Below are positions 1 to 11,594 of a stretch of 11,594 nucleotides of DNA, piece after piece. The DNA comes from a virus (Duplodnaviria; Heunggongvirae; Uroviricota; Caudoviricetes), in the IMG/VR virus record IMGVR_UViG_2737471843_000006, positions 1-11,594 of that record. The stretch is one strand, 5' to 3'. The stretch's first letter is position 1; every line of letters begins with the position of its first letter. The position numbers and the translations under genes are program-made. The notes beneath the pieces are model-generated. The model had not been told where the DNA came from. It saw only the letters and a list, made by a program, of their open reading frames with translations, and did no database searches.

Positions 1-1020
1 CTACTTACTGACCACAAGCGGCAAATCCAGTGTTGGTGTGATTTTGGTTTTACGATCGTAAATCAACACCTGATTTTCTGTTTTATGTCCACTGAAAATT
101 TGTTTGTCGCGGCTGCTGCCTTCGTAATCTGAAATCCCTTTGGCTTTTATGTCATGGAAGTTGCACCCAAACGGAGTGCCGGCTTTTTGCTCGGCTGCAC
201 GTTTAGCCTGATTCCACCAGTTGTTCAGCGTCTTAGCTATGACCTTCCCGCCTTTGGTTGTGTTGATCACATACTCGCATGTACTGGAAGATACATTTCT
301 GGCTAACTGGATCGCCGTGCGTAATCGCGGAGACCATTCTTTGATTTGCTTAGTGCCGGTCTTGTTTTGCTCAATGTAGATCCCCTTATCCATAATATCC
401 TGCCATTTCAGTTCGAGCACATCACCAAGCCTTGCCGCACAAAGATAGGATATCTCCATTGCAATGCGTAACTGTGGAGTTGCTTCCGCATATATCGCAG
501 CATACTGTTCATCGGTGATGTAAACAGTACGGGCCTTAAGCGTGAATTTTCTGACTCCTTTGCATGGATTATTTTTCACATATCCACGTTCATATCCCCA
601 TCCGTATACACGGCTCAGGCTTGCCAGTTCATGGTTTGCCTGGGTCTTGCTCTCAAGTCCTCGCTTATCCATGAAAATTCTTACCTGTTCTATTTTTACA
701 TTATCAGCAAGCACTTTTCCGAATACTGCCAGTAATGCCCTTTGATGTTGCCGATAATCTTTTTGAGTTCGTGGTGCCAGTTCTGTAAATGCAGGGGAGT
801 CCATAAACATGTGCCATAATTTAGCGACAGTCATTATGTTGTGAAGTTTTGCTTTTTCCAGTTCATAATTTTGCCAGACTTTAGCCACGCTGGTTTCCCG
901 CACTTTTCCGAGCCCTATAGTTCTTGTGCTTCCTTCGGGTTTCCATACATAACTGTAACCATTCGATCTAACACGTGGCGGCAGTGCGTTATCTTTTTTG
1001 TTTTTTCTTGGTCTTCCCAT
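1..1020 (-). CDS. int: Phage integrase, lambda-family tyrosine recombinase (339 aa)
   Basis: Complete ORF with stop at 1-3 (window edge). N-terminus MGRPRK...LPP..R.NGY...GLG parallels the lambda Int arm-binding domain. C-terminal catalytic region has R (AARLGDV), K (EQNKTG), H (FHDIK), H (SGHK) and Y (IYDRK). Start overlaps xis by 32 nt, as in lambda. Confidence 0.9.
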   Translation of the reverse strand: MGRPRKNKKDNALPPRVRSNGYSYVWKPEGSTRTIGLGKVRETSVAKVWQNYELEKAKLHNIMTVAKLWHMFMDSPAFTELAPRTQKDYRQHQRALLAVFGKVLADNVKIEQVRIFMDKRGLESKTQANHELASLSRVYGWGYERGYVKNNPCKGVRKFTLKARTVYITDEQYAAIYAEATPQLRIAMEISYLCAARLGDVLELKWQDIMDKGIYIEQNKTGTKQIKEWSPRLRTAIQLARNVSSSTCEYVINTTKGGKVIAKTLNNWWNQAKRAAEQKAGTPFGCNFHDIKAKGISDYEGSSRDKQIFSGHKTENQVLIYDRKTKITPTLDLPLVVSK

Positions 1021-1240
1021 TGTTCAGCGCCTCAAAATCGGGTTCAGCAGAAACCAGTTCAGATACTTTCGACATCGCTTTCAGCCCGTGCGGAACATCC
1101 TGGCGAAGAACTATTGGTTCGTTTTTAGGTCCGACTACAAACGGGATGCCGTGCAGCCTTAGCTGGTGTTGCTGTCTTGTGTATCGCGTGTATCTTGTGA
1201 TCTCTTCAATCTCTGCTGGCGATAGAGTTAATTCGTACAT
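989..1240 (-). CDS. xis: Excisionase, lambda Xis-like (83 aa)
   Basis: Small ORF directly upstream of int and overlapping it. N-terminal MYELTL and C-terminal basic tail NNGKTKKKQKR resemble lambda Xis (MYLTL...NGKKAKS). Weak SD (AAGG) about 11 nt upstream of the ATG. Confidence 0.6.
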   Translation of the reverse strand: MYELTLSPAEIEEITRYTRYTRQQHQLRLHGIPFVVGPKNEPIVLRQDVPHGLKAMSKVSELVSAEPDFEALNNGKTKKKQKR

Positions 1241-1306
1241 GTGGTCACGTGCCTTACAGCATGACCGCCGCCAATATAATTCGGAGACGGCGATCAGGGT
1301 TGAACA

Positions 1307-3748
1307 TTAAAAATCAACCGGATTCGGGATCAGTTTTTGCCAGATAGCTGAAACGTATTTTGCCTGGTAACGAGCGTCATCAAGTGCATTATGGCGCTCA
1401 CCTTCGAATGGAATAGCCGTTCTGGCATCGAAGTCTATGGCTTTCCCCAGCTCAACGATTGTGCGTACATCGCGATCGTTGTAGTAACGCCACGGGCAGG
1501 GGATCCCCTGCCGTTCGTATGAACGGCGCAAAATCGTGTTGTCGAAGTTGGCTCCATTTCCCCAGACCTGAACAAAAAATTCACCGGAGTTTTCGTCGAT
1601 AAATTCCCGCAATTGTAACAGTGCATCATCTAACGGGATTTCATCGGTCATAATGGCAGATTGCGCTTCGCGTGATTGCTTAAGCCACCATTTAATGGTG
1701 TCCCGATCAATGACTCCGCCAGCAGTTTCCAGATCGATAGTCTTACTAAATTCCGGTCCCATATCTCCGGTTTGCGGATCGAAAAATATTGCACCTATTG
1801 AGATGATCGGGGCATCAGGATTTTTTCCCATGGTTTCAAGGTCGATCATTAGATGGTCACACGTCCTGCTGGTGGATGTGATTTCGTGATGACCGTTCAC
1901 CTTAATTGAGTGATCTGCCGTCTCGCCAGTTTTATTATCGCTGGCGTGATGCTGATTGCCGCCAGGGTTCTCCTTGTGTGGATGTTCAGCGCCTTCCATT
2001 TCCTCCGGATCATTTTCCTGAACTTCAACCTGATTCTCTTCATCGAATGTTTCCTGGTATGTTGCGTCGCCCATCACCGCGCCACAATCAGGGCAGTTGC
2101 CGCCACCGCTCTGACCGCAGGCGGTGCAGACTTTTTCCGGTTCCTGTTGCGCTACTGGTTCGGATTGTTTCGTTTCTGGCTCGTTTTGTAACGCATTTGG
2201 GCTGTTTTGTTCCGCTTTTTGGTCGTTCCGTTCCGATTCATGCTGGTTCTGGTTCACAGAATCGCGAGTCTGGATCCCCTTGACCCATTTCGGATCATTA
2301 GGGTCGCTAATCCCCTCAACAAATTCACCACGCGATACAGCAAGTAACTTATCGGCGTCAGGCTGGCTGATATTGGCTGCCTGCATAATTTTGTTTACTT
2401 CGTCAGCGGTGACTTTTACTTGGTTAGCGGAACTCACCTGCGACTGAGCATCCAGCGACTGCGCGTTCTGGCCATGTTCAGTTGTATCCGGTTCCATTGT
2501 TTCAGTTGTTGCCTGTTCACCTGCCATTGCGTCAGATGGTTGTGGTTTTTCTTCTTCTGTTTCACGCTCAGTAACCACCTCGCGGTTAATTTCTTCCAGG
2601 ATATCTTTTTCCGGCGTATGCCGGGCAGCTGTGAGAGTTTCCTTGCTGGGGTTCTCGTGATCAGTTTCCGTCAAATAGGCGTTGATATACCCCTGAAGGC
2701 GTCCCGGGTAGTGATAAAATTCAGGGTGTGCGCTTCGGATAAGTGCAAAAATAGCGGCGCGGGAATAGTCCAGAATACCCGGGGTTGCACGAAGTGCTGC
2801 GGACCATTCTTTGAACGGACTTTCTTTGTTCAGGACTACTTCTTTTGCGCGACGATAAACGCTGCCCGGAATTTCATAAATATTAAAATCCATCGGAAGT
2901 GTGGCTGCTGCAATCTCCACATCCAGTGTGTCGAGGGTGTGTACTAAATTCGGATTGCGATCGGTTTTGTTCCCACCGCCAGCATTAGCACCGGAAGCCG
3001 TGCGGGTGATGCGTGAAACACGATTTCCTTTCATCCACTCTTTTGTCAGCAGACCCCGATCAGTGTAGTCAGCGTCCAGGTATGCTTCGAAAAAAGCAGT
3101 TATTAGTCCCAGGTCTGAATTACCAGGATTAGGGAAAACTTTGTCAGTGTCACGAACCAGTTTGTGGAGGTCGCGAATCTCCAGCGAGTCGAGCAGACTG
3201 GTTTTATGCGAAATAGCCAGGGCAGTAACAGCCGGTAGTTCTTCAGCCCGTGCAATGTGTAATGCCTGGAGTTCGTCGCGTGAAACGTGCGTTACTGGTT
3301 TTTCGCTGCCGTGTTGAGCAAGCCAACGAATGGGCAGTTCCTGACCGGAGACAGGCAGAAGCATGCTCTCCTCAATCTCAGTCATGTCTTCGCCGTTGAT
3401 GTTGGTATTGTCAGTGCTGGCTGGTTTGTCCTGAACAGAGGGGGAAGGGCCGATAAATGTCATTGTGATGCCATCTTTCCCGCCTTTTTCATAGCGGTTG
3501 CAGAATTCAGTATCAAACACGCCTTCTGGCGGAAGGTCGTCAACAACGGGCAAATTGACGCGGACGGGTTTTTTAAAGTCGTCTTCATCATAATCGTTGT
3601 CATCCATTGCGGTAATGCAGCGGGAGATTGCAACAGATAATTTTTTTGCTGTAGTCCAGTAAAAACCACCTTTAATTCCCAGGCGTTTTCTTACTTTGTC
3701 ATTTTTTGCTTCGCAATATAGTGCAAATTCTTCTTTATCAGTGCTCAT
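1307..3748 (-). CDS. Large prophage nuclease (813 aa): unknown N-terminal domain, acidic/Q-rich linker with CxxC-x8-CxxC zinc ribbon, C-terminal DEDDh (DnaQ-like) 3'-5' exonuclease domain
   Basis: Long ORF with GAGG SD 10 nt upstream of the ATG at 3748. C-terminal motifs match Exo I ([10 protein letters not shown]), Exo II ([12 protein letters not shown]) and Exo III ([12 protein letters not shown]). Central region is low-complexity E/Q/D-rich and contains [16 protein letters not shown]. Proteins in this position are often annotated exodeoxyribonuclease VIII-like. Confidence 0.8.
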
Positions 3749-3841
3749 TATTGGTAAACCTCATCACAGATTTAAGGGTGAACAAATCTCTGCCATTGCT
3801 GACATATAAGAATGAAACTGGATATTTATTACGGTGCTGTT

Positions 3842-4033
3842 TTAAAATCCTGCCGGGATTTCGTTATTATCCTGGTGAATAACTTTATCGACCGGATAAC
3901 AGTTGCCTGGAATTTTCTGTTCGGTTGCTGCTGCCATACATTCCTGCATTGTTCTGTGAACACTGACTGCAATATCAACTGGCTCTCCGGAAACAAGAAA
4001 AACCGTCAGAATAAGTGCAAATACTGGATTCAT
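3842..4033 (-). CDS. Small exported or membrane protein (63 aa from ATG at 4033)
   Basis: ATG at 4033 preceded by AAGGA SD. Hydrophobic N-terminus MNPVFALILTVFLVSG looks like a signal peptide or TM helix with no lipobox Cys. Start overlaps the stop of the upstream gene (ATGA, 4030-4033). The track ORF begins at an earlier in-frame ATG (4087) with no SD. Confidence 0.45.
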   Translation of the reverse strand: MNPVFALILTVFLVSGEPVDIAVSVHRTMQECMAAATEQKIPGNCYPVDKVIHQDNNEIPAGF

Positions 4034-4218
4034 TGTGCACATCCTTTTGGCATCAGACGTAAACGGGCCAGCATTGAAACAATGCATACTTTATTTAATA
4101 ACTCCCGTTCGTGTTTTCTCTTGTTAATGGCATCTTCAGTAAATATAGGGTTACTGATAGTGACACCAATTTCAAAACAACCTTCAGACGTATTAACGTT
4201 TGGTAATAACGTTTTCAT
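4030..4218 (-). CDS. Hypothetical small protein (62 aa)
   Basis: ATG at 4218 with GAGGG SD 8 nt upstream. Sequence MKTLLPNVNTSEGCFEIGV...LMPKGCAQ. Translationally coupled to the downstream small exported protein. The track ORF extends to a GTG at 4323 with no SD. Confidence 0.45.
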   Translation of the reverse strand: MKTLLPNVNTSEGCFEIGVTISNPIFTEDAINKRKHERELLNKVCIVSMLARLRLMPKGCAQ

Positions 4219-4439
4219 TATCGCGCCCTCAACAATGAGTTTTGTGATGCGGTGCCTGGTGCCTCCAGGTGACGTTAACCAGTTAACAATTAACGCCGGA
4301 TACAGAGAATCCACCCATAACACTGTTTTTGGTTTTAACTGTTCCGCGTGCGCTCAGCCGCATTCACCACATCACAAAATTCACTTTAAAAAGGGCGGCA
4401 GAGCAGTCACGGAGTAAAACTGATACCGCCAAACGTCAC

Positions 4440-4786
4440 CAGAAAATTGATAACAGAGGGCGTTGCAGCGGGGTTGTCACTTAAGCGTATGGTCAACCTG
4501 ACAACCCGGTGTCCTCAACGGGGGAAGGAATAACCCCGCCATACTTACCGCCTCGCCATTTCGCGGATTGCCACAACCGGAAGCGCACGGTCGACGAAAA
4601 TTTAACGACAGGCTATCTATGAACCAGCTACCTCGCCGTGCGCTTTCGCGTTATGGTCTGACTTTTCAGGGAAATATCCTTTCAGTAAACTGTCAGTGCC
4701 GGATGCTCACCCGTGTCCGGCGCACGCACTCCACCTCACCCGTGGAGAACTCCTTAATTACCAACCTTAGCTTCGTTGGTTAGCTA
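4440..4786. other. Structured GC-rich non-coding region inside the early-left operon (candidate ncRNA, terminator or processing region)
   Basis: No ORF of 60 aa or more with an SD on either strand between 4219 and 4786. Perfect 9-bp inverted repeat GGGTTGTCA (4471-4479) / TGACAACCC (4499-4507). GC hairpins at 4519-4538, 4696-4723 and 4760-4780. Confidence 0.3.
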
Positions 4787-5005
4787 TTAACGCGGGTATG
4801 TAATCATTCTGGCAATGCTTAATGCCGCTGCTTTTTCCAGCCTGGTGATATCCTGTTCCAGAGCGGACAGATTTTCAGCCTGCTTAGCCCTGGCTTCATT
4901 GGCCCATTTCAGATCCTGCGCTGCATTAATTTTCTGGCGCATCCACTCATAAAGTTCATCATCGGTATAGTCTGGTGCGATGATGACGGGTTCTCGTTTC
5001 TGCAT
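4787..5005 (-). CDS. Hypothetical small protein (72 aa)
   Basis: ATG at 5005 with GAGGAA SD 7 nt upstream, stop TAA at 4787-4789. Part of the leftward chain of small genes downstream of the pL-like promoter. Confidence 0.5.
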   Translation of the reverse strand: MQKREPVIIAPDYTDDELYEWMRQKINAAQDLKWANEARAKQAENLSALEQDITRLEKAAALSIARMITYPR

Positions 5006-5034
5006 ACTGATTCCTCGCGGTGCTGTTTCGCTTA

Positions 5035-5163
5035 TCAGCCGTTAGATTTTGCCGAGCTGGAAAGCGCCTGTTTAAATTCGTTGAAGCTGAGAGCTTCTTC
5101 GCCGTCGGCAAGACCTTCGAAGTATTCTTCATAAGCCTTTTCCATGATTGTGTCGAAATCCAT
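5035..5163 (-). CDS. Hypothetical acidic mini-protein (42 aa; not in the ORF track)
   Basis: ATG at 5161-5163 preceded by AGGTGA SD, one nucleotide after the stop of the upstream gene (TGA 5165-5167). Translation MDFDTIMEKAYEEYFEGLADGEEALSFNEFKQALSSSAKSNG, stop TGA at 5035-5037. Confidence 0.35.
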   Translation of the reverse strand: MDFDTIMEKAYEEYFEGLADGEEALSFNEFKQALSSSAKSNG

Positions 5164-5164
5164 A

Positions 5165-5401
5165 TCACTCACCTGAGTTTCTTTCCAGCCAGCGACGGGC
5201 ACCATTTTCGGTTTTAAACGTTTTGCTTTTGGTATACGTCATCGCGGTGAACGTACCGTCCTGGTTGGGGAACACGCCACATACCAGAGATTCGCTGTTG
5301 CCAAGATCGATAGTATCCATGCTGACCTCATTTCCCCTTAACGCCGGGGTAGCGGAACAAAAACCTGCTGCATAGTTATTAAAGTTGAACCCTGCCGTCA
5401 T
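5165..5401 (-). CDS. Hypothetical small protein (78 aa from ATG 5401; alternative start at 5320 gives 51 aa)
   Basis: First gene downstream of the pL-like promoter. ATG 5401 has GAGG about 9 nt upstream; the internal ATG 5320 (MDTIDLG...) has a better-placed GAGG 6 nt upstream. Stop is tightly coupled to the next ORF. Confidence 0.4.
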   Translation of the reverse strand: MTAGFNFNNYAAGFCSATPALRGNEVSMDTIDLGNSESLVCGVFPNQDGTFTAMTYTKSKTFKTENGARRWLERNSGE

Positions 5402-5501
5402 GTTCTTACGCCTCGGGCTGGCTACTTAACCCCTGACCACTGCCTGGTAACTCGAGGTATTGCCCTGTATTGTGTGGGACGGGATGGGTTGGTATGGGAA
5501 A

Positions 5502-5546
5502 ACTATAGGAAATGCCTAATTACTTGTCAATAGGCTATGCCTAATA
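5502..5546 (-). promoter_or_regulatory. Left operator/promoter (OL/pL-like): -35 TTGACA (minus; plus 5524-5529), 16-bp spacer, -10 TATAGT (plus 5502-5507), overlapping operator palindromes
   Basis: Operator AATAGGCTATGCCTAAT at 5529-5545 and weaker site at 5504-5520, centres about 25 bp apart. 5524-5545 is the exact reverse complement of 6168-6189 on the other side of the repressor gene. Confidence 0.5.
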
Positions 5547-5638
5547 ATTTGGGCGCAACCTAATAGGTGATGGTTTGTGGGAGAGGTAGTAGGAGTTAAC
5601 TAACGGGAACTAGGAATTTCCCGTCGGACCATATAAGT

Positions 5639-6115
5639 TTAAGTTCCTGTCTTGGTGATGTTCTGGCTTTTCCGTTTTGATTCTTGATTTTTCAGATAGT
5701 TAGCTACCTTCATTTCCATTGCGGCAATGTAGGCGCGAACGTCATGATCAACCCAACTAGGCTCCGTAGCATTTCCAGATAAGATGAAAGCCACAATTGC
5801 TCTTTTTTCATCAGAGGCGGCTTGATAAAGGCTGTTTATGTCTAAAAGTTCACTTTTTGTATCTGAAGTGGATGGGGTTGGTATGGGGTATTCGTTAAGC
5901 CCCCAATGCTCTGGACCAACCACATCAGAAAAGAAACGCCATAGTTCTGGAAGTTTGTCTTTACTTATCGAACCTTTCTTAATCCAGTCATGGATTGATG
6001 GTGGTTGGACTTTGAAATGACGTGCGATTTCCGCCTTTGATTTGACGGCTCCTGATGCAATTTTTTTGTTAATGGCCTGCTCTATCGCTCGGCCTAAGTC
6101 TTTACCACTAAGCAT
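5639..6115 (-). CDS. racR: Prophage repressor, HTH (XRE/cI-like) DNA-binding protein, RacR-like (158 aa)
   Basis: N-terminal HTH AEIARHFKVQPPSIHDWIKKG. Transcribed divergently from a Cro-like gene, with operator palindromes on both sides. Size and arrangement fit the racR-ydaS-ydaT module of Rac-type prophages; the symbol rests on architecture and memory, not on a search. Confidence 0.8.
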   Translation of the reverse strand: MLSGKDLGRAIEQAINKKIASGAVKSKAEIARHFKVQPPSIHDWIKKGSISKDKLPELWRFFSDVVGPEHWGLNEYPIPTPSTSDTKSELLDINSLYQAASDEKRAIVAFILSGNATEPSWVDHDVRAYIAAMEMKVANYLKNQESKRKSQNITKTGT

Positions 6116-6142
6116 TGCTTAATAGTCTCCTATGCGCATCGC

Positions 6143-6212
6143 GTTAGGCAATCCCTACTCTCGATGTATTAGGCATAGCCTATTGACAATTTAATTAGGC
6201 TAAGCCTAATAT
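6143..6212 (+). promoter_or_regulatory. Right operator/promoter (OR/pR-like): three operator sites and -35 TTGACA (6183-6188) / -10 TAATAT (6207-6212)
   Basis: Perfect palindrome ATTAGGC-TAA-GCCTAAT at 6194-6210, near-palindrome ATTAGGCATAGCCTATT at 6168-6184 and a weaker site at 6143-6159, centres 25-26 bp apart. The -35 and -10 overlap the operators. Confidence 0.55.
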
Positions 6213-6239
6213 TGTTGCGTGTTTTTTGGAGTTCATTCG

Positions 6240-6563
6240 ATGAAAAAAGATAACTATTCATTCAAACGAGCTTGTGCTGTTGTCGGTGGGCAATCAGCAA
6301 TGGCTAGGCTTTTAGGTGTATCTCCTCCAAGCGTAAATCAATGGATCAAAGGTGTACGTCAGTTACCTGCTGAGAGATGTCCTGCGATTGAACGAGCAAC
6401 AAAAGGTGGTGTCCTGTGTGAAGAACTTCGTCCTGATGTTGATTGGACATACTTACGACGCTCGTCATGTTATTCGCAGAATATGTCGATGAAGCAACCA
6501 AATGACGAAAACGATCATACCCGAAGCATCAAGAGGCAAATGATTCATGAAAATCAAACATGA
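6240..6563 (+). CDS. ydaS: Cro-like HTH regulator, YdaS-like (107 aa from ATG 6240)
   Basis: GGAG SD 9 nt upstream of ATG 6240. HTH SAMARLLGVSPPSVNQWIKG, with a recognition helix similar to that of the repressor. First gene of the rightward operon from the pR-like promoter. The track ORF starts at 6219 with no SD. Confidence 0.75.
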   Translation: MKKDNYSFKRACAVVGGQSAMARLLGVSPPSVNQWIKGVRQLPAERCPAIERATKGGVLCEELRPDVDWTYLRRSSCYSQNMSMKQPNDENDHTRSIKRQMIHENQT

Positions 6564-6972
6564 GCACATCCGCATGGCGATGAATGCCTGGGCATACCCT
6601 GATGGTGAGAAAGTTCCTGCAGCTGAAATAGCCCGGACTTATTTCGAACTGGGGATGACGTTCCCTGAACTGTACGACGACAGCCATCCGGAAGCCCTGG
6701 CCCGTAATACCCAGAAAATTTTCCGTTGGCTGGATAAAGACACCCCTGATGCTGTTGAAAAAATGCAGGCTCTGTTACCGGCGATCGAAAAGGCGATGCC
6801 GCCTTTGCTGGTGGCCCGTATGCGCAGCCACAGTTCTGAATATTACCGTGAGATCGTCGAACGGAGGGATCGGCTGGTGAAGGATGTCGATGATTTTGTT
6901 GCGTCAGCGGTTGTTTTGTATGACCAGATGAATCGCGGCGGCCCGGCAGGGAATGCTGTGGTGATGCACTAA
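6547..6972 (+). CDS. ydaT: YdaT-like protein (141 aa), proposed CII-like regulator or toxin of Rac-type prophages
   Basis: Start overlaps the ydaS-like gene by 17 nt, with AAGAGG upstream. Size and position match ydaT. Sequence MKIKHEHIRMAMNAWAYPDGEK... Confidence 0.7.
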   Translation: MKIKHEHIRMAMNAWAYPDGEKVPAAEIARTYFELGMTFPELYDDSHPEALARNTQKIFRWLDKDTPDAVEKMQALLPAIEKAMPPLLVARMRSHSSEYYREIVERRDRLVKDVDDFVASAVVLYDQMNRGGPAGNAVVMH

Positions 6973-6994
6973 AAGCACGGTGTTCGGGGGTTTT

Positions 6995-7957
6995 ATGAGC
7001 AGCAAGCTTCATGGTCTTGTCTGGGAAGGGTGCGCCTTCACCGGCATGATCTTATCCAGGGTGGCGGTTATGGCCCGTCTTGCAGACTACAGCAATGACG
7101 AGGGCGTGTCATGGCCTGCCATTGAAACTATCCGGCGTCAGATCGGTGCAAGAAGTGAATCCACAGTGAAATCGGCTATTGCAGAACTGGCGAAAGAGGG
7201 CTGGCTGACGAAGGAAGAGCGTAAGGTCGGTGGGCGTAATGTAAGCAATATCTATCGGCTTAATGTGGAAAAACTCGAAGCAGCTGCGGCGGCGGCGCGT
7301 GAGTCATATAAACCGAAAAGAAAAATTAGCCCGGCAAAAAATGACCAGTTAACAGTTGACCCGTCAAATATTGACCCCTCAACGGTTGACCCGTCAAATT
7401 TTGATGGATCAACTGTTGATAAAAAACTGCCGATTAGGGGGGCGATGATTGACCCCGATCCGTCAGTATTAAAACCTGATCCGTCAGATAAAAGATCTTC
7501 TTGTCCGGACGCTTCGCAACCGGACCCGCAGACGGCTGAACAGGATTTTTTAACCCGACACCCTGACGCGGTTGTGTTCAGTGCGAAAAAACGCCAGTGG
7601 GGAAGTCAGGAAGATTTGGTGTGCGCACAGTGGATCTGGGGACGAATCGTGAGTCTTTACGAGCAGGCGGCCAGCGATGATGGCGAGATCACTAGACCGA
7701 AAGAACCCAACTGGACAGCATGGGCCAATGACGTTCGCACAATGCGGATGCTGGATGGCAGAACTCACAGACAAATTTGTGAAATGTTTGGGCGTCTCCA
7801 GCGGGATTCGTTCTGGGTAAAAAACATCATGAGTCCGGCAAAACTCCGGGAAAAATGGGATGAACTGGTTATCCGCCTGGGGCGTTCGCCTGCGCAGCGT
7901 TGCGTGAATCACATTTCTGAACCGGACACTGAAATTCCGCCGGGCTTCAGGGGGTAA
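6995..7957 (+). CDS. Replication initiation protein: N-terminal winged-helix domain, repeat-containing linker, DnaT-like C-terminal domain
   Basis: N-terminus LSRVAVMARLADYSNDEGVSWPAIETIRRQIGARSESTVKSAIAELAKEGWL is typical of phage/plasmid initiator wHTH domains. C-terminus ...VNHISEPDTEIPPGFRG resembles the C-terminus of E. coli primosomal protein DnaT. Start could instead be GTG 6980; ATG 6995 follows a G-rich stretch. Confidence 0.75.
   Translation: MSSKLHGLVWEGCAFTGMILSRVAVMARLADYSNDEGVSWPAIETIRRQIGARSESTVKSAIAELAKEGWLTKEERKVGGRNVSNIYRLNVEKLEAAAAAARESYKPKRKISPAKNDQLTVDPSNIDPSTVDPSNFDGSTVDKKLPIRGAMIDPDPSVLKPDPSDKRSSCPDASQPDPQTAEQDFLTRHPDAVVFSAKKRQWGSQEDLVCAQWIWGRIVSLYEQAASDDGEITRPKEPNWTAWANDVRTMRMLDGRTHRQICEMFGRLQRDSFWVKNIMSPAKLREKWDELVIRLGRSPAQRCVNHISEPDTEIPPGFRG
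7355..7420. repeat. Iteron array (putative replication origin) inside the initiator gene
   Basis: 15-bp perfect direct repeat GTTGACCCGTCAAAT at 7355-7369 and 7385-7399. Degenerate copies TTGACCCCTCAA (7371-7382) and TTGATGGATCAA (7401-7412) give a 15-16 bp period. Each unit has internal dyad symmetry TTGAC..GTCAA. A further repeat GATCCGTCAG lies at 7457-7466 and 7478-7487. Confidence 0.5.
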
Positions 7958-7997
7958 GTGTTAATTTCTGGTCATGAGGTAATTTTCAGGAGGGCTT

Positions 7998-8420
7998 GTG
8001 GCAAAAGTTTTTACACAAGAAGAGCGGGAAAAAATTAAAGGGCAGGTTGTTGAACTCGTACGCCAGAGTGGGCGCGAGACGTTACGACAACTGGAAACTA
8101 AAACTGGGGCAACAAGATATCTGATGAGCGTTCTCGCCAGAGAGCTGGTTGCCAGTGGCGACGTATATAACTCCGGCTACGGGTTATTACCGTCAGAACA
8201 GGCTCGTAAGGACTGGCAAAATGCCCGCAAAAAACTATCCAGGGCAAAGGTGAAGAAACCATCTGTGGTTGATCCTGACCTTATCTGGTCATTACCTGAC
8301 GGAGAAATACGTCGCTACGACAGGAGTATGAACATAATCTGTCACGAGTGCCGGAAGAGTGAGGTTATGCAGCGAGTGCTGGCGTTTTATCAGGGTAATT
8401 ATCAGGAGGTGATGCTGTGA
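7998..8420 (+). CDS. Hypothetical protein (140 aa), possible winged-helix DNA-binding protein, coupled to the downstream methyltransferase
   Basis: GTG start at 7998 with AGGAGG SD at 7988-7993. Segment RETLRQLETKTGATRYLMSVLARELVASGDV is HTH-like. Its stop TGA (8418-8420) overlaps the GTG start (8417) of the methyltransferase. Confidence 0.55.
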   Translation: MAKVFTQEEREKIKGQVVELVRQSGRETLRQLETKTGATRYLMSVLARELVASGDVYNSGYGLLPSEQARKDWQNARKKLSRAKVKKPSVVDPDLIWSLPDGEIRRYDRSMNIICHECRKSEVMQRVLAFYQGNYQEVML

Positions 8421-8890
8421 GTGCACCGGCAACCATTCTTGATATGTGCTGCGGCAGCCGCATGTTCTGGTTTGATAAGAATGACGACCGGGCGATATTT
8501 AGCGATATCAGAAAGGAAGAGCACACATTGTGTGATGGACGACGCCTGATTATCAGTCCTGATCTGATAGCTGATTTTCGTGCACTACCATTTGCAGACG
8601 CATCTTTTTCGATGGTTATATTCGATCCTCCGCATCTTGAGCGTGTTGGTGATAACGCCTGGATGGGAAAGAAATATGGACGGCTGAATAAAGATACCTG
8701 GCGTGATGATTTGCGGCAGGGATTTAAAGAAGCCTTTCGTGTGTTGCGTCCATACGGCGTTCTGATTTTTAAATGGAATGAAACGCAAATACCTGTTCGC
8801 CAGATATTGGTGCTGACCGACAGAAAACCTGTTATCGGTCAACGAACAGGAAAAAACGATAAAACCCACTGGATTATTTTTATGAAATAG
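8417..8890 (+). CDS. Minimal SAM-dependent methyltransferase (157 aa) with DPPH catalytic motif; likely orphan DNA (N6-A or N4-C) or nucleic-acid amino-methyltransferase
   Basis: Motif I-like ILDMCCGSRMFWF (G-x-G type SAM loop), acidic motif II (IFSDIRKEE) and motif IV VIFDPPH. No obvious target-recognition domain. AGGAGG SD 7 nt upstream of the GTG start. Confidence 0.7.
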   Translation: MSAPATILDMCCGSRMFWFDKNDDRAIFSDIRKEEHTLCDGRRLIISPDLIADFRALPFADASFSMVIFDPPHLERVGDNAWMGKKYGRLNKDTWRDDLRQGFKEAFRVLRPYGVLIFKWNETQIPVRQILVLTDRKPVIGQRTGKNDKTHWIIFMK

Positions 8891-9011
8891 GCATCCAGTG
8901 AGTAGGTTAGTAAGGTTACAGATACGTATATCTGAATAATTAAATTCAGTTCTGTAAATAAAATTTAATCCTTAACCGGAGGGATTTCTGCACCCTCAGA
9001 ACATCAGGAGG

Positions 9012-9027
9012 CCGCCCGAAAGGGCGG
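9012..9027 (+). promoter_or_regulatory. GC hairpin with GAAA tetraloop between an SD-like AGGAGG and the start codon of the downstream gene
   Basis: CCGCCC (9012-9017) / GGGCGG (9022-9027) stem, loop GAAA. AGGAGG at 9006-9011 and ATG at 9037. The hairpin leaves an effective 9-nt spacer. No U-tract follows, so it is not a classic terminator. Confidence 0.35.
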
Positions 9028-9036
9028 TAACAAATA

Positions 9037-9513
9037 ATGCAAGAAATCAAAGAAAATATCAGGCAACAGCTTTACGGGTTTTATATTGCTTATGATTTGT
9101 GGCTGAAGAACGGGGCAAAACCCGGCGGAGTGTTTTCTCAAAATTATGGTTTATGCGCCAATCTTTTCGATTATCTCACATTAATTGGTACCCCCTGTGA
9201 GGCAGCGCTGGAGCAATTACACGCTGATTTCAGAAGTGCCGGGCTGAATGAGGCGTTGCCGTTTAACGAGGGTAAAGAGCATTACCATGAAGAAAGAGGG
9301 CACAACATGTGCCATATGAATCCGGCACGAGTGGCGTGGGTCAGGGCGCAGACAGGGCAGCCAGCGCCGGAAGGACTGGTTAAAGCGGTGCGTTTTTATG
9401 AGCAGGTAAAACGTGAGAACCCGCCAGTCGAAACAGGAGCATGGAAAGACGCTGTTGACTGGGTGCTCAAAGAGGCTTGCCAGGCTGTAAACATTGGCAT
9501 CAAAGGAGAGTGA
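9037..9513 (+). CDS. Hypothetical protein (158 aa)
   Basis: ORF starts after the AT-rich intergenic region and SD-hairpin arrangement. No motif I can name. Stop TGA (9511-9513) lies 2 nt before the next ATG. Confidence 0.6.
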   Translation: MQEIKENIRQQLYGFYIAYDLWLKNGAKPGGVFSQNYGLCANLFDYLTLIGTPCEAALEQLHADFRSAGLNEALPFNEGKEHYHEERGHNMCHMNPARVAWVRAQTGQPAPEGLVKAVRFYEQVKRENPPVETGAWKDAVDWVLKEACQAVNIGIKGE

Positions 9514-9515
9514 GA

Positions 9516-10007
9516 ATGCAAATTTCACCGGTTACTCTTCGTGTTGCGAAGGCGTTTATATCCAGACATCACCGACACAATAAACCACCTGTTGGGCATA
9601 AATTCAGCATTGGTCTGATAAATGATGCCGGAGAATTGATAGGTGTGGCGACAGCTGGTCGACCTGTTGCACGACATTTGGACGATGGATTAACGCTTGA
9701 AGTAAATCGCACATGTACCACAGGAGAACGCAACGCTAACAGCGCGCTTTATGGTGCTGTCTGGCGAGCAGCAAAAGCTATGGGTTATCAACGTTGTATT
9801 ACGTACACCCAGGCAGATGAATCAGGAGCATCTCTTCGCGCAGCTGGTTTTGTTCGTGTGAAAGAGCTTCCTCCAAGAAAAAGCTGGGCGGAATCAAGCG
9901 TCGCCCTGCGGAGTAAACGCGATCCGGTCGGAAACGGTGGTGTTCCTCGTGTGCTCTGGGAAATCAGGAGAATGAGTACCACTGGCATTCGCATCAAAGG
10001 AGAGTGA
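9516..10007 (+). CDS. GNAT-fold-like protein (163 aa), possible N-acetyltransferase
   Basis: ATG 9516 with AGGAG SD 7 nt upstream. Segment LEVNRTCTTGERNANSALYGAVWRAAKAMGYQRCITYT fits the GNAT beta4-loop-alpha3-beta5 core, but the canonical Q/R-x-x-G-x-G/A motif is not clear. Confidence 0.5.
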   Translation: MQISPVTLRVAKAFISRHHRHNKPPVGHKFSIGLINDAGELIGVATAGRPVARHLDDGLTLEVNRTCTTGERNANSALYGAVWRAAKAMGYQRCITYTQADESGASLRAAGFVRVKELPPRKSWAESSVALRSKRDPVGNGGVPRVLWEIRRMSTTGIRIKGE

Positions 10008-10020
10008 TATGGCAACTTTG
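9991..10020 (+). repeat. Gene-boundary repeat, copy A (AAAGGAGAGTGATATGGCAACTTTG)
   Basis: 25 nt at 9996-10020 are identical to 10654-10678. GCATCAAAGGAGAGTGA (9991-10007) is also shared with 9497-9513. The repeat spans the last codons, stop, SD and first codons at gene junctions. Confidence 0.6.
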
Positions 10021-10296
10021 CAGGAATTAATCGACCTGACGCCAGAACAGGAAAAAGCGTGGAATCGCCTTGTGAAGGCTGTAAAGGATTTCAGGGCAGC
10101 CGGAGGAAAGTTTTATAGCGTCCTGGACACGCTGAGCGCATACAACGGCGAGCACGTTGCCAGCATTGATAACGATAAGGGCTACCACACTGCAAGCGTC
10201 TATATGCCTAGCATTGATGCGCCAGGGCTAACCAGTTGGGCTGATGATTGGCACGGCATCACGCTGAAAGATGGGGTTGAAGTGGATGAGGACTAA
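10009..10296 (+). CDS. Hypothetical protein (95 aa)
   Basis: ATG 10009 with AGGAG SD 8 nt upstream, inside the boundary repeat. Stop TAA at 10294-10296, 3 nt before the next ATG. Confidence 0.55.
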   Translation: MATLQELIDLTPEQEKAWNRLVKAVKDFRAAGGKFYSVLDTLSAYNGEHVASIDNDKGYHTASVYMPSIDAPGLTSWADDWHGITLKDGVEVDED

Positions 10297-10299
10297 CAC

Positions 10300-10665
10300 A
10301 TGACTACTTTTACCGACAAAGAAATGATTAAAGAAATCAAAGAGCGTATAGGCAGCCTGGACGTCCGAGACAATATTGAGCGTCGGGCTTATGAAATCGC
10401 ACTGGCATCGCTGGAGGCAGAACCAGTTGCTTATATTTTCAAACATCCGGCCGGGAAATTATTCTGGGCTTTAACGGATGAAAGCAATAAAGAGCAATCG
10501 GACGTTATTCCTGTTTATGCCGCCCCTCCAGTGCCAGTAGTACCTGAAGAAAAACCAATGCCTAACCCTCTTAAAATGTACGCGGTTGATGCTGTTGCCG
10601 CTATTGCAGAGGTGAGAGGCTGGAACGCCTGTCGTGCCGCTATGCTTCAGGGGAAAGGAGAGTGA
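10300..10665 (+). CDS. Hypothetical protein (121 aa), paralog of the truncated ORF at 10941
   Basis: GAGG SD 8 nt upstream. Shares motifs IALASLEAEPVA, PxPVVP and ACRAAMLQ with the ORF at 10941. Ends in KGE-stop inside a boundary repeat. Confidence 0.55.
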   Translation: MTTFTDKEMIKEIKERIGSLDVRDNIERRAYEIALASLEAEPVAYIFKHPAGKLFWALTDESNKEQSDVIPVYAAPPVPVVPEEKPMPNPLKMYAVDAVAAIAEVRGWNACRAAMLQGKGE

Positions 10666-10678
10666 TATGGCAACTTTG
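10654..10678 (+). repeat. Gene-boundary repeat, copy B (AAAGGAGAGTGATATGGCAACTTTG)
   Basis: Identical 25-mer to 9996-10020. It contains the stop of the 121-aa gene, the SD and the MATL start of the next gene. Confidence 0.6.
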
Positions 10679-10930
10679 ACAAAAAAAGAACAAGCATGGT
10701 TGAACGAATTACAGGACGTTCTTGATCGCTGCCCATCACCGAAAAAAATTGGTTTTTACACCATTGGCGATAAAAGCATTTACCTGTATGACCTGCGCCG
10801 CATGGATGAAATCATGGAGGCTCTTGATAATCGTTCGTCAATGGATTGGTGTGTTGCTGTCCATGATATGAATGCCGGATTTGAAGAAAAGATTTTGTTC
10901 CCCTCGTCAGTTGAAAGCACTGCGGGTTAA
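10667..10930 (+). CDS. Hypothetical protein (87 aa from ATG 10667)
   Basis: ATG 10667 with AGGAG SD 8 nt upstream. The track ORF starts at 10634 but that ATG lies inside the previous gene and has no SD. N-terminus MATLTKKEQAW resembles that of the 10009 gene. Confidence 0.5.
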   Translation: MATLTKKEQAWLNELQDVLDRCPSPKKIGFYTIGDKSIYLYDLRRMDEIMEALDNRSSMDWCVAVHDMNAGFEEKILFPSSVESTAG

Positions 10931-10940
10931 GGAGTAACAC

Positions 10941-11594
10941 ATGACCACTATTACCAAAGAGCGACTGCTGACAATCAAGCAGTGGCGCGAAACATACGGA
11001 CCTGGTAGCAACGTTGTACTGCCAGCAGAAGAAGCGGAAGAGCTGGCACGGATTGCTCTGGCATCGCTGGAAGCAGAACCGGTGGCATGGACTGATGAAG
11101 AGGAACTGCGCGATGTCAGGAAGTATGGTTTCGGTGAGATATTTCAGTGTCCGCCAGATAAATATGCGGACCCGCGTCGTGTAATCTCGCTGTATCGCGA
11201 GCTGCCAGCACCGGTAGTGCCAGATGATTGGCAACTCGTACCTAAGAAAATAACACTGGAAATGGAATGTGCTCTATCAAAAGCTGATAGCTATGAAATT
11301 GGTTGGCTATGGGCATTGGCAGCCGCACCTAAATACGAAGTACAGAACGCTAAACGCGTGCAAAACGCGCTTAACGCCTGCCGCGCCGCCATGCTTCAGT
11401 CCGGAAACTTTCGGGAAAACAAGAATTCGTCAACCAATAATTTTCGGGAAATCGCGGAAACGTCAACCAACTCTCCGGTAATTCCTGATGAGGTGTTGTC
11501 CGCAATCCGGGAGGTTGCCAGGATTCGCGCCGATTTCGATGATTTTGACGGTGACAGGCGAGGTATCGGTGATTGCCTGGATGAGGCCGAGCAA
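10941..11594 (+). CDS. Hypothetical protein, 3'-truncated by the window end (at least 218 codons), paralog of 10300-10665
   Basis: ATG 10941 with AAGGAG SD 6 nt upstream. Open frame runs to the window end with no stop, so it is absent from the ORF track. Shares IALASLEAEPVA, PAPVVP and ACRAAMLQ with the 121-aa protein. Contains a 33-bp tandem repeat at 11405-11470. Confidence 0.55.
   Translation, partial: MTTITKERLLTIKQWRETYGPGSNVVLPAEEAEELARIALASLEAEPVAWTDEEELRDVRKYGFGEIFQCPPDKYADPRRVISLYRELPAPVVPDDWQLVPKKITLEMECALSKADSYEIGWLWALAAAPKYEVQNAKRVQNALNACRAAMLQSGNFRENKNSSTNNFREIAETSTNSPVIPDEVLSAIREVARIRADFDDFDGDRRGIGDCLDEAEQ

Follow-up and report, generated by a model that had tools for sequence, protein, structure and literature searches.

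A stand-alone, compact Mom-like GNAT gene of the XF1762 family in the early region of a lambdoid Escherichia coli prophage

Do two small open reading frames (ORFs) that lie 2 nucleotides (nt) apart in a prophage form a dedicated pair, or has each arrived there on its own? The question is posed by ORF A (9037-9513) and ORF B (9516-10007) in IMG/VR record IMGVR_UViG_2737471843_000006, of which positions 1 to 11,594 make up the 11,594-nt stretch analysed here (the window), the early region of a lambdoid E. coli prophage with an integrase, a large exonuclease-type ORF and cI/cro/cII-like genes. A sequence-only reading had described the two ORFs as a candidate two-gene moron, toxin-antitoxin-like or anti-defence, with a GNAT-like second protein. 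Coordinates and spacing are confirmed, and the same two coding sequences are found in a 98%-identical prophage stretch of E. coli QA-1986 630, where RefSeq annotates them as 'hypothetical protein' and 'XF1762 family protein'. The explanation that fits best as a whole, and that we consider probable rather than secure, is that ORF B is a stand-alone Mom-like accessory gene with a putative anti-restriction function, that ORF A is its chance neighbour, and that the linker and leader accompanying them are generic.

ORF B is a compact Mom-like GNAT of the XF1762 family. It matches NCBIfam NF045478 ('XF1762 family') with 204.4 bits (E 6.3e-61, cut-off 50; residues 3-136, model positions 2-130 of 143) and PHROG 1384 ('Mom-like DNA modification protein') at 4.5e-42, and the identical protein WP_021529587.1 is named 'XF1762 family protein' in RefSeq; since both the gene and its family are already catalogued in this way, novelty is low. 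The match to the family is full-length, differing only in the last 11 residues (MSTTGIRIKGE), which are not found in homologues of other genera, most of which stop soon after ...WEIRR, and which are contributed by a local linker sequence discussed below. The sole Pfam match of the protein is Mom (PF25680); a precomputed PF25680.2 match is on record for relatives at 84-86% identity, and some distant relatives reach 27.3-32.5 bits, whereas ORF B itself falls below the gathering threshold of 27.1 bits, so that the family stands at the edge of the Pfam Mom model. The AlphaFold2 model of ORF B (predicted local distance difference test score, pLDDT, 85.6) has a GNAT fold, as had been supposed, and its best fold match is the Mom protein of phage Mu (PDB 8bv8). 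Ordinary acetyltransferases rank close behind, and the fold alone therefore cannot separate Mom from generic GNATs. At the sequence level, neither BLASTP nor narrow-profile hhalign against Mu Mom alone was significant, and searches of PDB sequences by phmmer and with a narrow family profile returned nothing useful; a usable alignment needed broad profiles on both sides, with diverse XF1762 proteins set against Mom homologues in hhalign, which aligned over 119 columns at E 1.4e-4. The earlier statement that the function of both proteins is unknown from sequence was thus too pessimistic for ORF B, which profiles place beside Mu Mom, and holds for ORF A, which lacks an informative match.

Mu Mom moves glycine from Gly-tRNA(Gly) to the N6 of adenine in duplex DNA, giving 6-NcmdA; its R101 (R111 in the numbering of that study) and S114 (S124) are essential, Y49 (Y59), D139 (D149), R141 (R151) and Y149 (Y159) are important for momylation, and deletion of its helix-turn-helix (HTH)-like insertion of ~35-46 amino acids (aa; residues ~175-209 in the published numbering) abolishes activity (PMC13219725). 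R101 is conserved among Mom homologues and not across GNATs. In addition to sharing the GNAT fold, ORF B has the active-site positions of Mom at H19/H48, R65/R101, N73/N111 and S76/S114 (Table 1; conservation was measured in 150 representatives of XF1762 clusters at 50% identity). The loop between β4 and α3 reads TGERNANS, like PRNSES in Mom, in place of the canonical Q/RxxGxG/A acetyl-CoA pyrophosphate loop, and all signature residues of the XF1762 family (HRH, GRP..R, E..R, RN..S, TYT, E.G.S, W, W), which are 95-99% conserved, are present in ORF B. Both proteins are basic (the isoelectric point, pI, of ORF B is 10.7), both are encoded by temperate phages, and both contain a β6-β7 insertion that starts with a conserved Trp; that of ORF B sits where the HTH-like insertion of Mom does and is poorly conserved apart from W124. 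The two differ in size (~150-163 aa in ORF B and XF1762 proteins versus 231 aa in Mu Mom, whose N-terminal extension is absent from ORF B), in regulation (ORF B has neither a com gene nor Mom-type control) and in position, mom being located at the end of the Mu late operon and ORF B in an early gene array. Because the key residues are only partly kept and the insertion is short, ORF B is best described as a compact sister of Mom rather than as a Mom orthologue.

Table 1. Features of the window, with ORF B residues placed against those of Mu Mom (numbering of PMC13219725 in brackets)
Feature	Position	Strand	Details
ORF A	ATG 9037 to TGA 9511-9513	+	158 aa
ORF B	ATG 9516 to TGA 10005-10007	+	163 aa
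H19-R20-H21 motif of ORF B	9570-9578	+	each residue 99% conserved in the 150 representatives
H19			Mom H48 (H58); kept; hhalign
R20			Mom Y49 (Y59); tyrosine lost; hhalign
R65	9708-9710	+	Mom R101 (R111); kept; EVNR aligns with ELNR; 99% conserved
N73-A-N-S76	9732-9743	+	replaces the canonical Q/RxxGxG/A acetyl-CoA loop; hhalign
N73			Mom N111; kept; 95% conserved
S76			Mom S114 (S124); kept; 97% conserved
Q99			Mom R141 (R151); not kept; hhalign
Alignment gap			Mom D139 (D149); hhalign
L107			Mom Y149 (Y159); tyrosine lost; hhalign
β6-β7 insertion (residues 119-144)	9870-9947	+	~26 aa; W124 97% conserved; model pLDDT 64-73
ORF A C-terminal module (PEGLVKAVRFYEQVKRENPPVETGAWKDAVDWVLKEACQAVNIGIKGE)	9358-9513	+	~50 aa; also ends many Ead_Ea22 (PF13935) proteins and other prophage proteins
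Linker copy 1 (AAAGGAGAGTGA)	9502-9513	+	end of ORF A; encodes ...KGE-stop; Shine-Dalgarno sequence (GGAG) for ORF B
Linker copy 2 (AAAGGAGAGTGA)	9996-10007	+	end of ORF B; gives the non-family tail ...IRIKGE
Linker copy 3 (AAAGGAGAGTGA)	10654-10665	+	end of a 121-aa ORF
Conserved non-coding leader	8932-9029	+	~98 nt; AT-rich stretch, hairpin GAGGG-N9-CCCTC, Shine-Dalgarno sequence, G+C hairpin
Shine-Dalgarno sequence AGGAGG	9006-9011	+	25 nt before the ATG of ORF A
Hairpin CCGCCC-GAAA-GGGCGG	9012-9027	+	6-bp G+C stem directly after the Shine-Dalgarno sequence; in minimum-free-energy and centroid folds
O-like replication initiator	6980-7957		
DUF977/Ren-like gene	7998-8420		
Small DNA methyltransferase	8417-8890	+	157 aa; DPPH motif; PHROG 954 at 3e-86; PADLOC type II/orphan methyltransferase
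DicF antisense small RNA gene	4393-4444	-	Rfam RF00039; 76.7 bits versus gathering score 48

ORF B is an accessory gene of temperate phages. By analogy with Mu Mom, it would act during lytic growth, its product transferring an acyl or aminoacyl group onto nucleic acid; the likeliest target would be phage DNA, which would thereby be protected against host restriction. A link to nucleic acid is suggested by the high pI and by domain fusions, in which XF1762 domains of metagenomic proteins (P0266, P0315, P0314 and P0322) are joined to a D12 N6-adenine methyltransferase, a C5 cytosine methyltransferase, YodL and LPD28 polyvalent-protein domains, or DUF6884. We infer the donor, the acceptor and the anti-restriction role from the Mom precedent, and put forward Mom-like modification of nucleic acid, most likely phage DNA, leading to restriction evasion as a tentative proposal. 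The anti-defence element of the sequence-only reading thus persists as the best guess for ORF B, while the dedicated two-gene form that it was given there finds no support.

Several observations weigh against this assignment and the function drawn from it. ORF B itself scores 23.5 bits against PF25680, below the gathering threshold, with an E-value of 5e-5 and coverage of model positions 3-124 of 202 only, and the probability of the profile-profile alignment between XF1762 and Mom is only 53%, with residues 1-117 covered. Of the Mom residues listed above, Y49, Y149 and R141 correspond to R20, L107 and Q99, while D139 has no aligned counterpart; the near-invariant E102 nearby might stand in for it. 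The β6-β7 insertion is about half the length of the one that Mom requires for activity. The fusions come from metagenomic gene calls, among which mis-calls are possible. DNA methyltransferases account for three of the 113 immediate neighbours of XF1762 genes, and because this enrichment is weak, such a neighbourhood is not relied on here. Experimental characterisation of the XF1762 family was not found in the literature searched, where 'XF1762' retrieved nothing and 'Mom-like DNA modification protein' occurs as an annotation label only.

Since Mom residues are lost and the insertion is shorter, the acceptor or the chemistry of ORF B may differ from momylation, and because several Mom-specific parts are missing, a Mom-fold transferase with a target other than DNA, serving host takeover in lytic growth (for instance by acylating or consuming aminoacyl-tRNA, or by modifying a different RNA, a small molecule or a protein), has to be taken as a serious rival. 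The loss of both Mom tyrosines, the unclear counterparts of D139 and R141 and the halving of the insertion, which in Mom is proposed to bind DNA, all suit this reading, as does the presence of near-invariant XF1762 motifs that are not in Mom (HRH, GRPxAR, E102 and S106); moreover, generic GNATs fit the ORF B fold almost as well as Mom does, and strong conservation across phyla would be in keeping with a universal substrate such as tRNA. We nevertheless consider a non-DNA target unlikely, on account of the retention of the Mom-specific Arg and of the RNxxS motif, the fusion of XF1762 domains to DNA methyltransferases, the location of XF1762 genes in DNA-metabolism and early regions of phages, and the lack of any match, in the Pfam search, between ORF B and GNAT families of known small-molecule or protein specificity. 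Beside the preferred Mom-like modification of phage DNA stands a broader proposal, which we hold to be doubtful: XF1762 proteins might constitute a second functional class of Mom-like enzymes, minimal GNATs that would use an aminoacyl-tRNA or another acyl donor to make a modification other than 6-NcmdA, or to modify another acceptor, without the HTH-like element or the tyrosines.

The XF1762 family is far more widespread than Mom. Its profile retrieves 3,840 clusters at 50% identity (2,696 at E<=1e-10), with members in Gamma-, Beta- and Alphaproteobacteria, Actinobacteria, Clostridia, Acidobacteria, Planctomycetota and Dehalococcoidia, and in temperate phages of E. coli, Pectobacterium, Burkholderia, Mycobacterium abscessus, Streptomyces, Microbacterium, Synechococcus and Pelagibacter; members in these groups are 55-70% identical to the E. 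coli protein. Homologues in Pectobacterium phage ZF40, Burkholderia phage phi1026b (gp66), Microbacterium phage Min1 and Streptomyces phage Samy bear the PHROG-derived name. Twenty of 169 XF1762 gene copies in E. coli come from plasmid records, which may be phage-plasmids; one of them is NZ_AP027413.1 (58 kb). Although ORF B in this window is an ordinary finding, the chemistry of Mom, in which glycine derived from tRNA is placed on DNA adenine, was solved only recently (PMC13219725), and this compact sister family has become an attractive target: with the key Arg and Ser kept and other parts missing, it offers a cheap and well-defined way to probe how much of Mom is needed to modify DNA, and to ask if temperate phages have further nucleic-acid modifications that depend on tRNA.

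Does ORF B act with a partner? Among 25 XF1762 loci of different species no neighbour family recurs. With 80 viral contigs added, 79 loci were kept in which the XF1762 protein is <90% identical to ORF B (about 100 loci overall), and the commonest neighbouring family is present in only six of these 79. Any one Pfam family is found at most three times among the 113 immediately flanking proteins, a mix of helicases, nucleases, methylases and products of lysis and terminase genes, and the genes directly upstream, surveyed at 99 loci, encode unrelated families of 43 to 526 aa. Within E. coli, genes 99-100% identical to ORF B at the aa level are found in lambdoid prophages and in the P2-like PhiR44_2 behind genes for proteins of 158, 119 or 104 aa, and a 92%-identical copy in the P22-like phage Kapi1 sits behind an Ead/Ea22-like protein. 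Across 5,426 complete E. coli genomes, the ORF B gene is present in 154 and the N-terminal module of ORF A in 29, the two being contiguous in seven, so that in 147 of the 154 genomes ORF A is not adjacent. The region is therefore not a two-gene system: neighbours differ at nearly all of the roughly 100 loci, ORF B moves between temperate phages as a single gene, and the proposed module dissolves.

Since ORF B travels alone, ORF A is to be regarded as a chance mosaic neighbour. ORF A is mildly acidic (pI 5.75), has no match in Pfam, NCBIfam, PADLOC or PDB, and carries no RHH, DUF1778, zinc-finger or HTH signature, in agreement with the earlier remark that the upstream protein has no obvious DNA-binding motif. 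It matches only PHROGs of 'unknown function', which are divided between its two halves, and the alignment resolves it into two modules, one N-terminal (aa 1 to ~105), which elsewhere is joined to other C-termini such as DUF551, and one C-terminal (aa ~108-158). The C-terminal module is all that the genes upstream of the XF1762 gene in L028 and in PhiR44_2 have in common with ORF A, and it is also found without an XF1762 gene downstream. The AlphaFold2 model of ORF A is all-helical and poor (pLDDT 64.7), and a Foldseek search with it returned only noise (best E 1.7). Named homologues are nearly all from E. coli; ORF A is a mosaic restricted to that species and unrelated to ORF B, upstream of which it lies by chance in this prophage.

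Two explanations that retain a functional link between the genes can be weighed on the same evidence. In one, ORF A would be devoted to ORF B as its regulator or cofactor, much as Com, whose gene directly precedes mom in phage Mu, activates the translation of mom. The order and tight spacing of the genes recall com-mom, and in E. coli phages of lambdoid and P2-like type the XF1762 gene and the 50-aa C-terminal module of ORF A travel together; this co-travel is, however, explained by simple linkage beside a recombination joint, the same tail occurs on Ea22-like proteins that precede other genes, and neither the 92%-identical gene in Kapi1 nor any non-enterobacterial locus has it upstream. The layout of the com-mom operon is not reproduced either, ORF A being a protein of 158 aa that has no Pfam match, no zinc finger and no similarity to Com and that is not conserved upstream of XF1762 genes, and we judge a Com-like role very unlikely. 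In the other, ORF B would be a toxin and ORF A its antitoxin. ORF B resembles the type II GNAT toxins AtaT, TacT, KacT and ItaT in fold, size and a close-spaced upstream gene, whereas those toxins are paired with RHH/DUF1778 antitoxins. Despite the acidic nature of ORF A, the basic nature of ORF B and the handling of Gly-tRNA(Gly) by both Mom and TacT (PMC13219725), a toxin of the AtaT/TacT/KacT type is highly improbable, because ORF A has no antitoxin-type domain, because the single-gene family to which ORF B belongs has no conserved upstream partner in ~100 loci or in the E. coli genomes, because the modules of ORF A exist without ORF B and the motif that couples the genes is generic, and because the top 50-60 fold matches of ORF B include no GNAT toxin and RNANS replaces the canonical acetyl-CoA loop motif.

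The tight junction between ORF A and ORF B, which had suggested coupling specific to a pair, is a generic linker of the form AAAGGAGAGTGA-N1-2-ATG that recurs at successive gene boundaries. Exact copies of this 12-mer stand at three consecutive gene ends in the window, against 0.04 expected by chance, with an ATG coming 1-2 nt after each copy; the repeat extends to 34 nt (repeat family D1). The genes behind copies 2 and 3 share the start ATGGCAACTTT. Elsewhere, prophages have an Ea22-like protein that ends in the ORF A tail directly before the 95-aa gene that here follows ORF B, and in three other phages the 87-aa gene found directly behind ORF B is the one that lies 660 nt further on here, the XF1762 cassette being present or absent between identical joints across phages. 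The linker ends one cassette with ...KGE-stop and supplies the Shine-Dalgarno sequence for the next, and its likely roles are to couple translation and to allow cassettes to be exchanged by homology; on the simplest reading, these joints would be sites of presumed recombination between cassettes and ORF B one such cassette. In mosaic lambdoid phages, gene junctions carry conserved boundary sequences of short length ('linkers'), and the 12-34-nt repeat likewise falls exactly at three cassette boundaries.

A second generic element precedes the pair. The spacer that follows the methyltransferase gene (146 nt, 8891-9036) is AT-rich, with a GC minimum of 0.31 over 8825-8974, and the order Shine-Dalgarno sequence, hairpin and AUG is present as the sequence-only reading had described it. 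The ORF A ATG lies 9 nt past the hairpin stem, and if the hairpin forms, the effective spacing between Shine-Dalgarno sequence and AUG is therefore ~9 nt; the fold of 8960-9060 has an energy of -29 kcal/mol (z = -3.8) and beats all 200 shuffles. A query with 8932-9039 (108 nt) is found in 2,498 of the 5,426 complete E. coli genomes (46%), at 3,524 places, with 88-99% conservation, up to five copies per genome and always a different first gene behind it. In aligned copies, homology stops just past the hairpin, the next gene is DUF7167, DUF551, DUF4014 or hypothetical, the ATG is 7-10 nt past the stem, and AGGAG(G/A) before the stem is the only Shine-Dalgarno-like motif. Eight copies of the stem contain two changes that keep pairing by wobble, two disruptive changes and no compensatory double changes, so that the hairpin is a plausible structure that covariation does not prove. 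Rfam has no match in the leader or in the ORF A/ORF B region. The leader is thus a portable element at the start of the whole gene array and is not specific to this pair; in lambdoid prophages it could work as a translational leader or as an RNA element of some other kind. Split ribosome-binding sites are known from genes 38 and 25 of phage T4, and the present leader is similar to them, its Shine-Dalgarno sequence being kept from the AUG by a stable hairpin that would restore normal spacing. The G+C hairpin was also considered as an intrinsic terminator, which the absence of a T-run after it on either strand rules out.

Behind this leader, small ORFs including ORF A and ORF B are arrayed head-to-tail, and genes run on in the same array past ORF B. 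Consensus scans, the only kind made, found no sigma-70-like promoter in the spacer and no terminator-like site at the junction of ORF B with the downstream gene, the matches in the scanned region all lying within coding sequences; a separate transcription unit, as of a true moron, is therefore not supported, and of the 'own' intergenic region that had been claimed for the pair the spacer is real, while the leader within it is generic. Together, linker and leader illustrate the swapping of single-gene cassettes in early regions of E. coli prophages.

Further along the array, direct repeats of 31 and 35 nt (84-86% identical, ~650 nt apart; 10284-10430 versus 10925-11086) mark paralogous N-terminal modules (MTTFT.../MTTIT..., IALASLEAEP) of successive small ORFs and are further evidence of modular shuffling in the array. 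Upstream, the methyltransferase gene begins within the last bases of the DUF977 gene and is located one spacer ahead of the Mom-like gene; its equivalent in an O157:H7 copy of the locus is a pseudogene. On the other strand, a sub-threshold STnc100-like match (4241-4381) adjoins DicF, in a neighbourhood that corresponds to a Qin/Rac-type dicB region.

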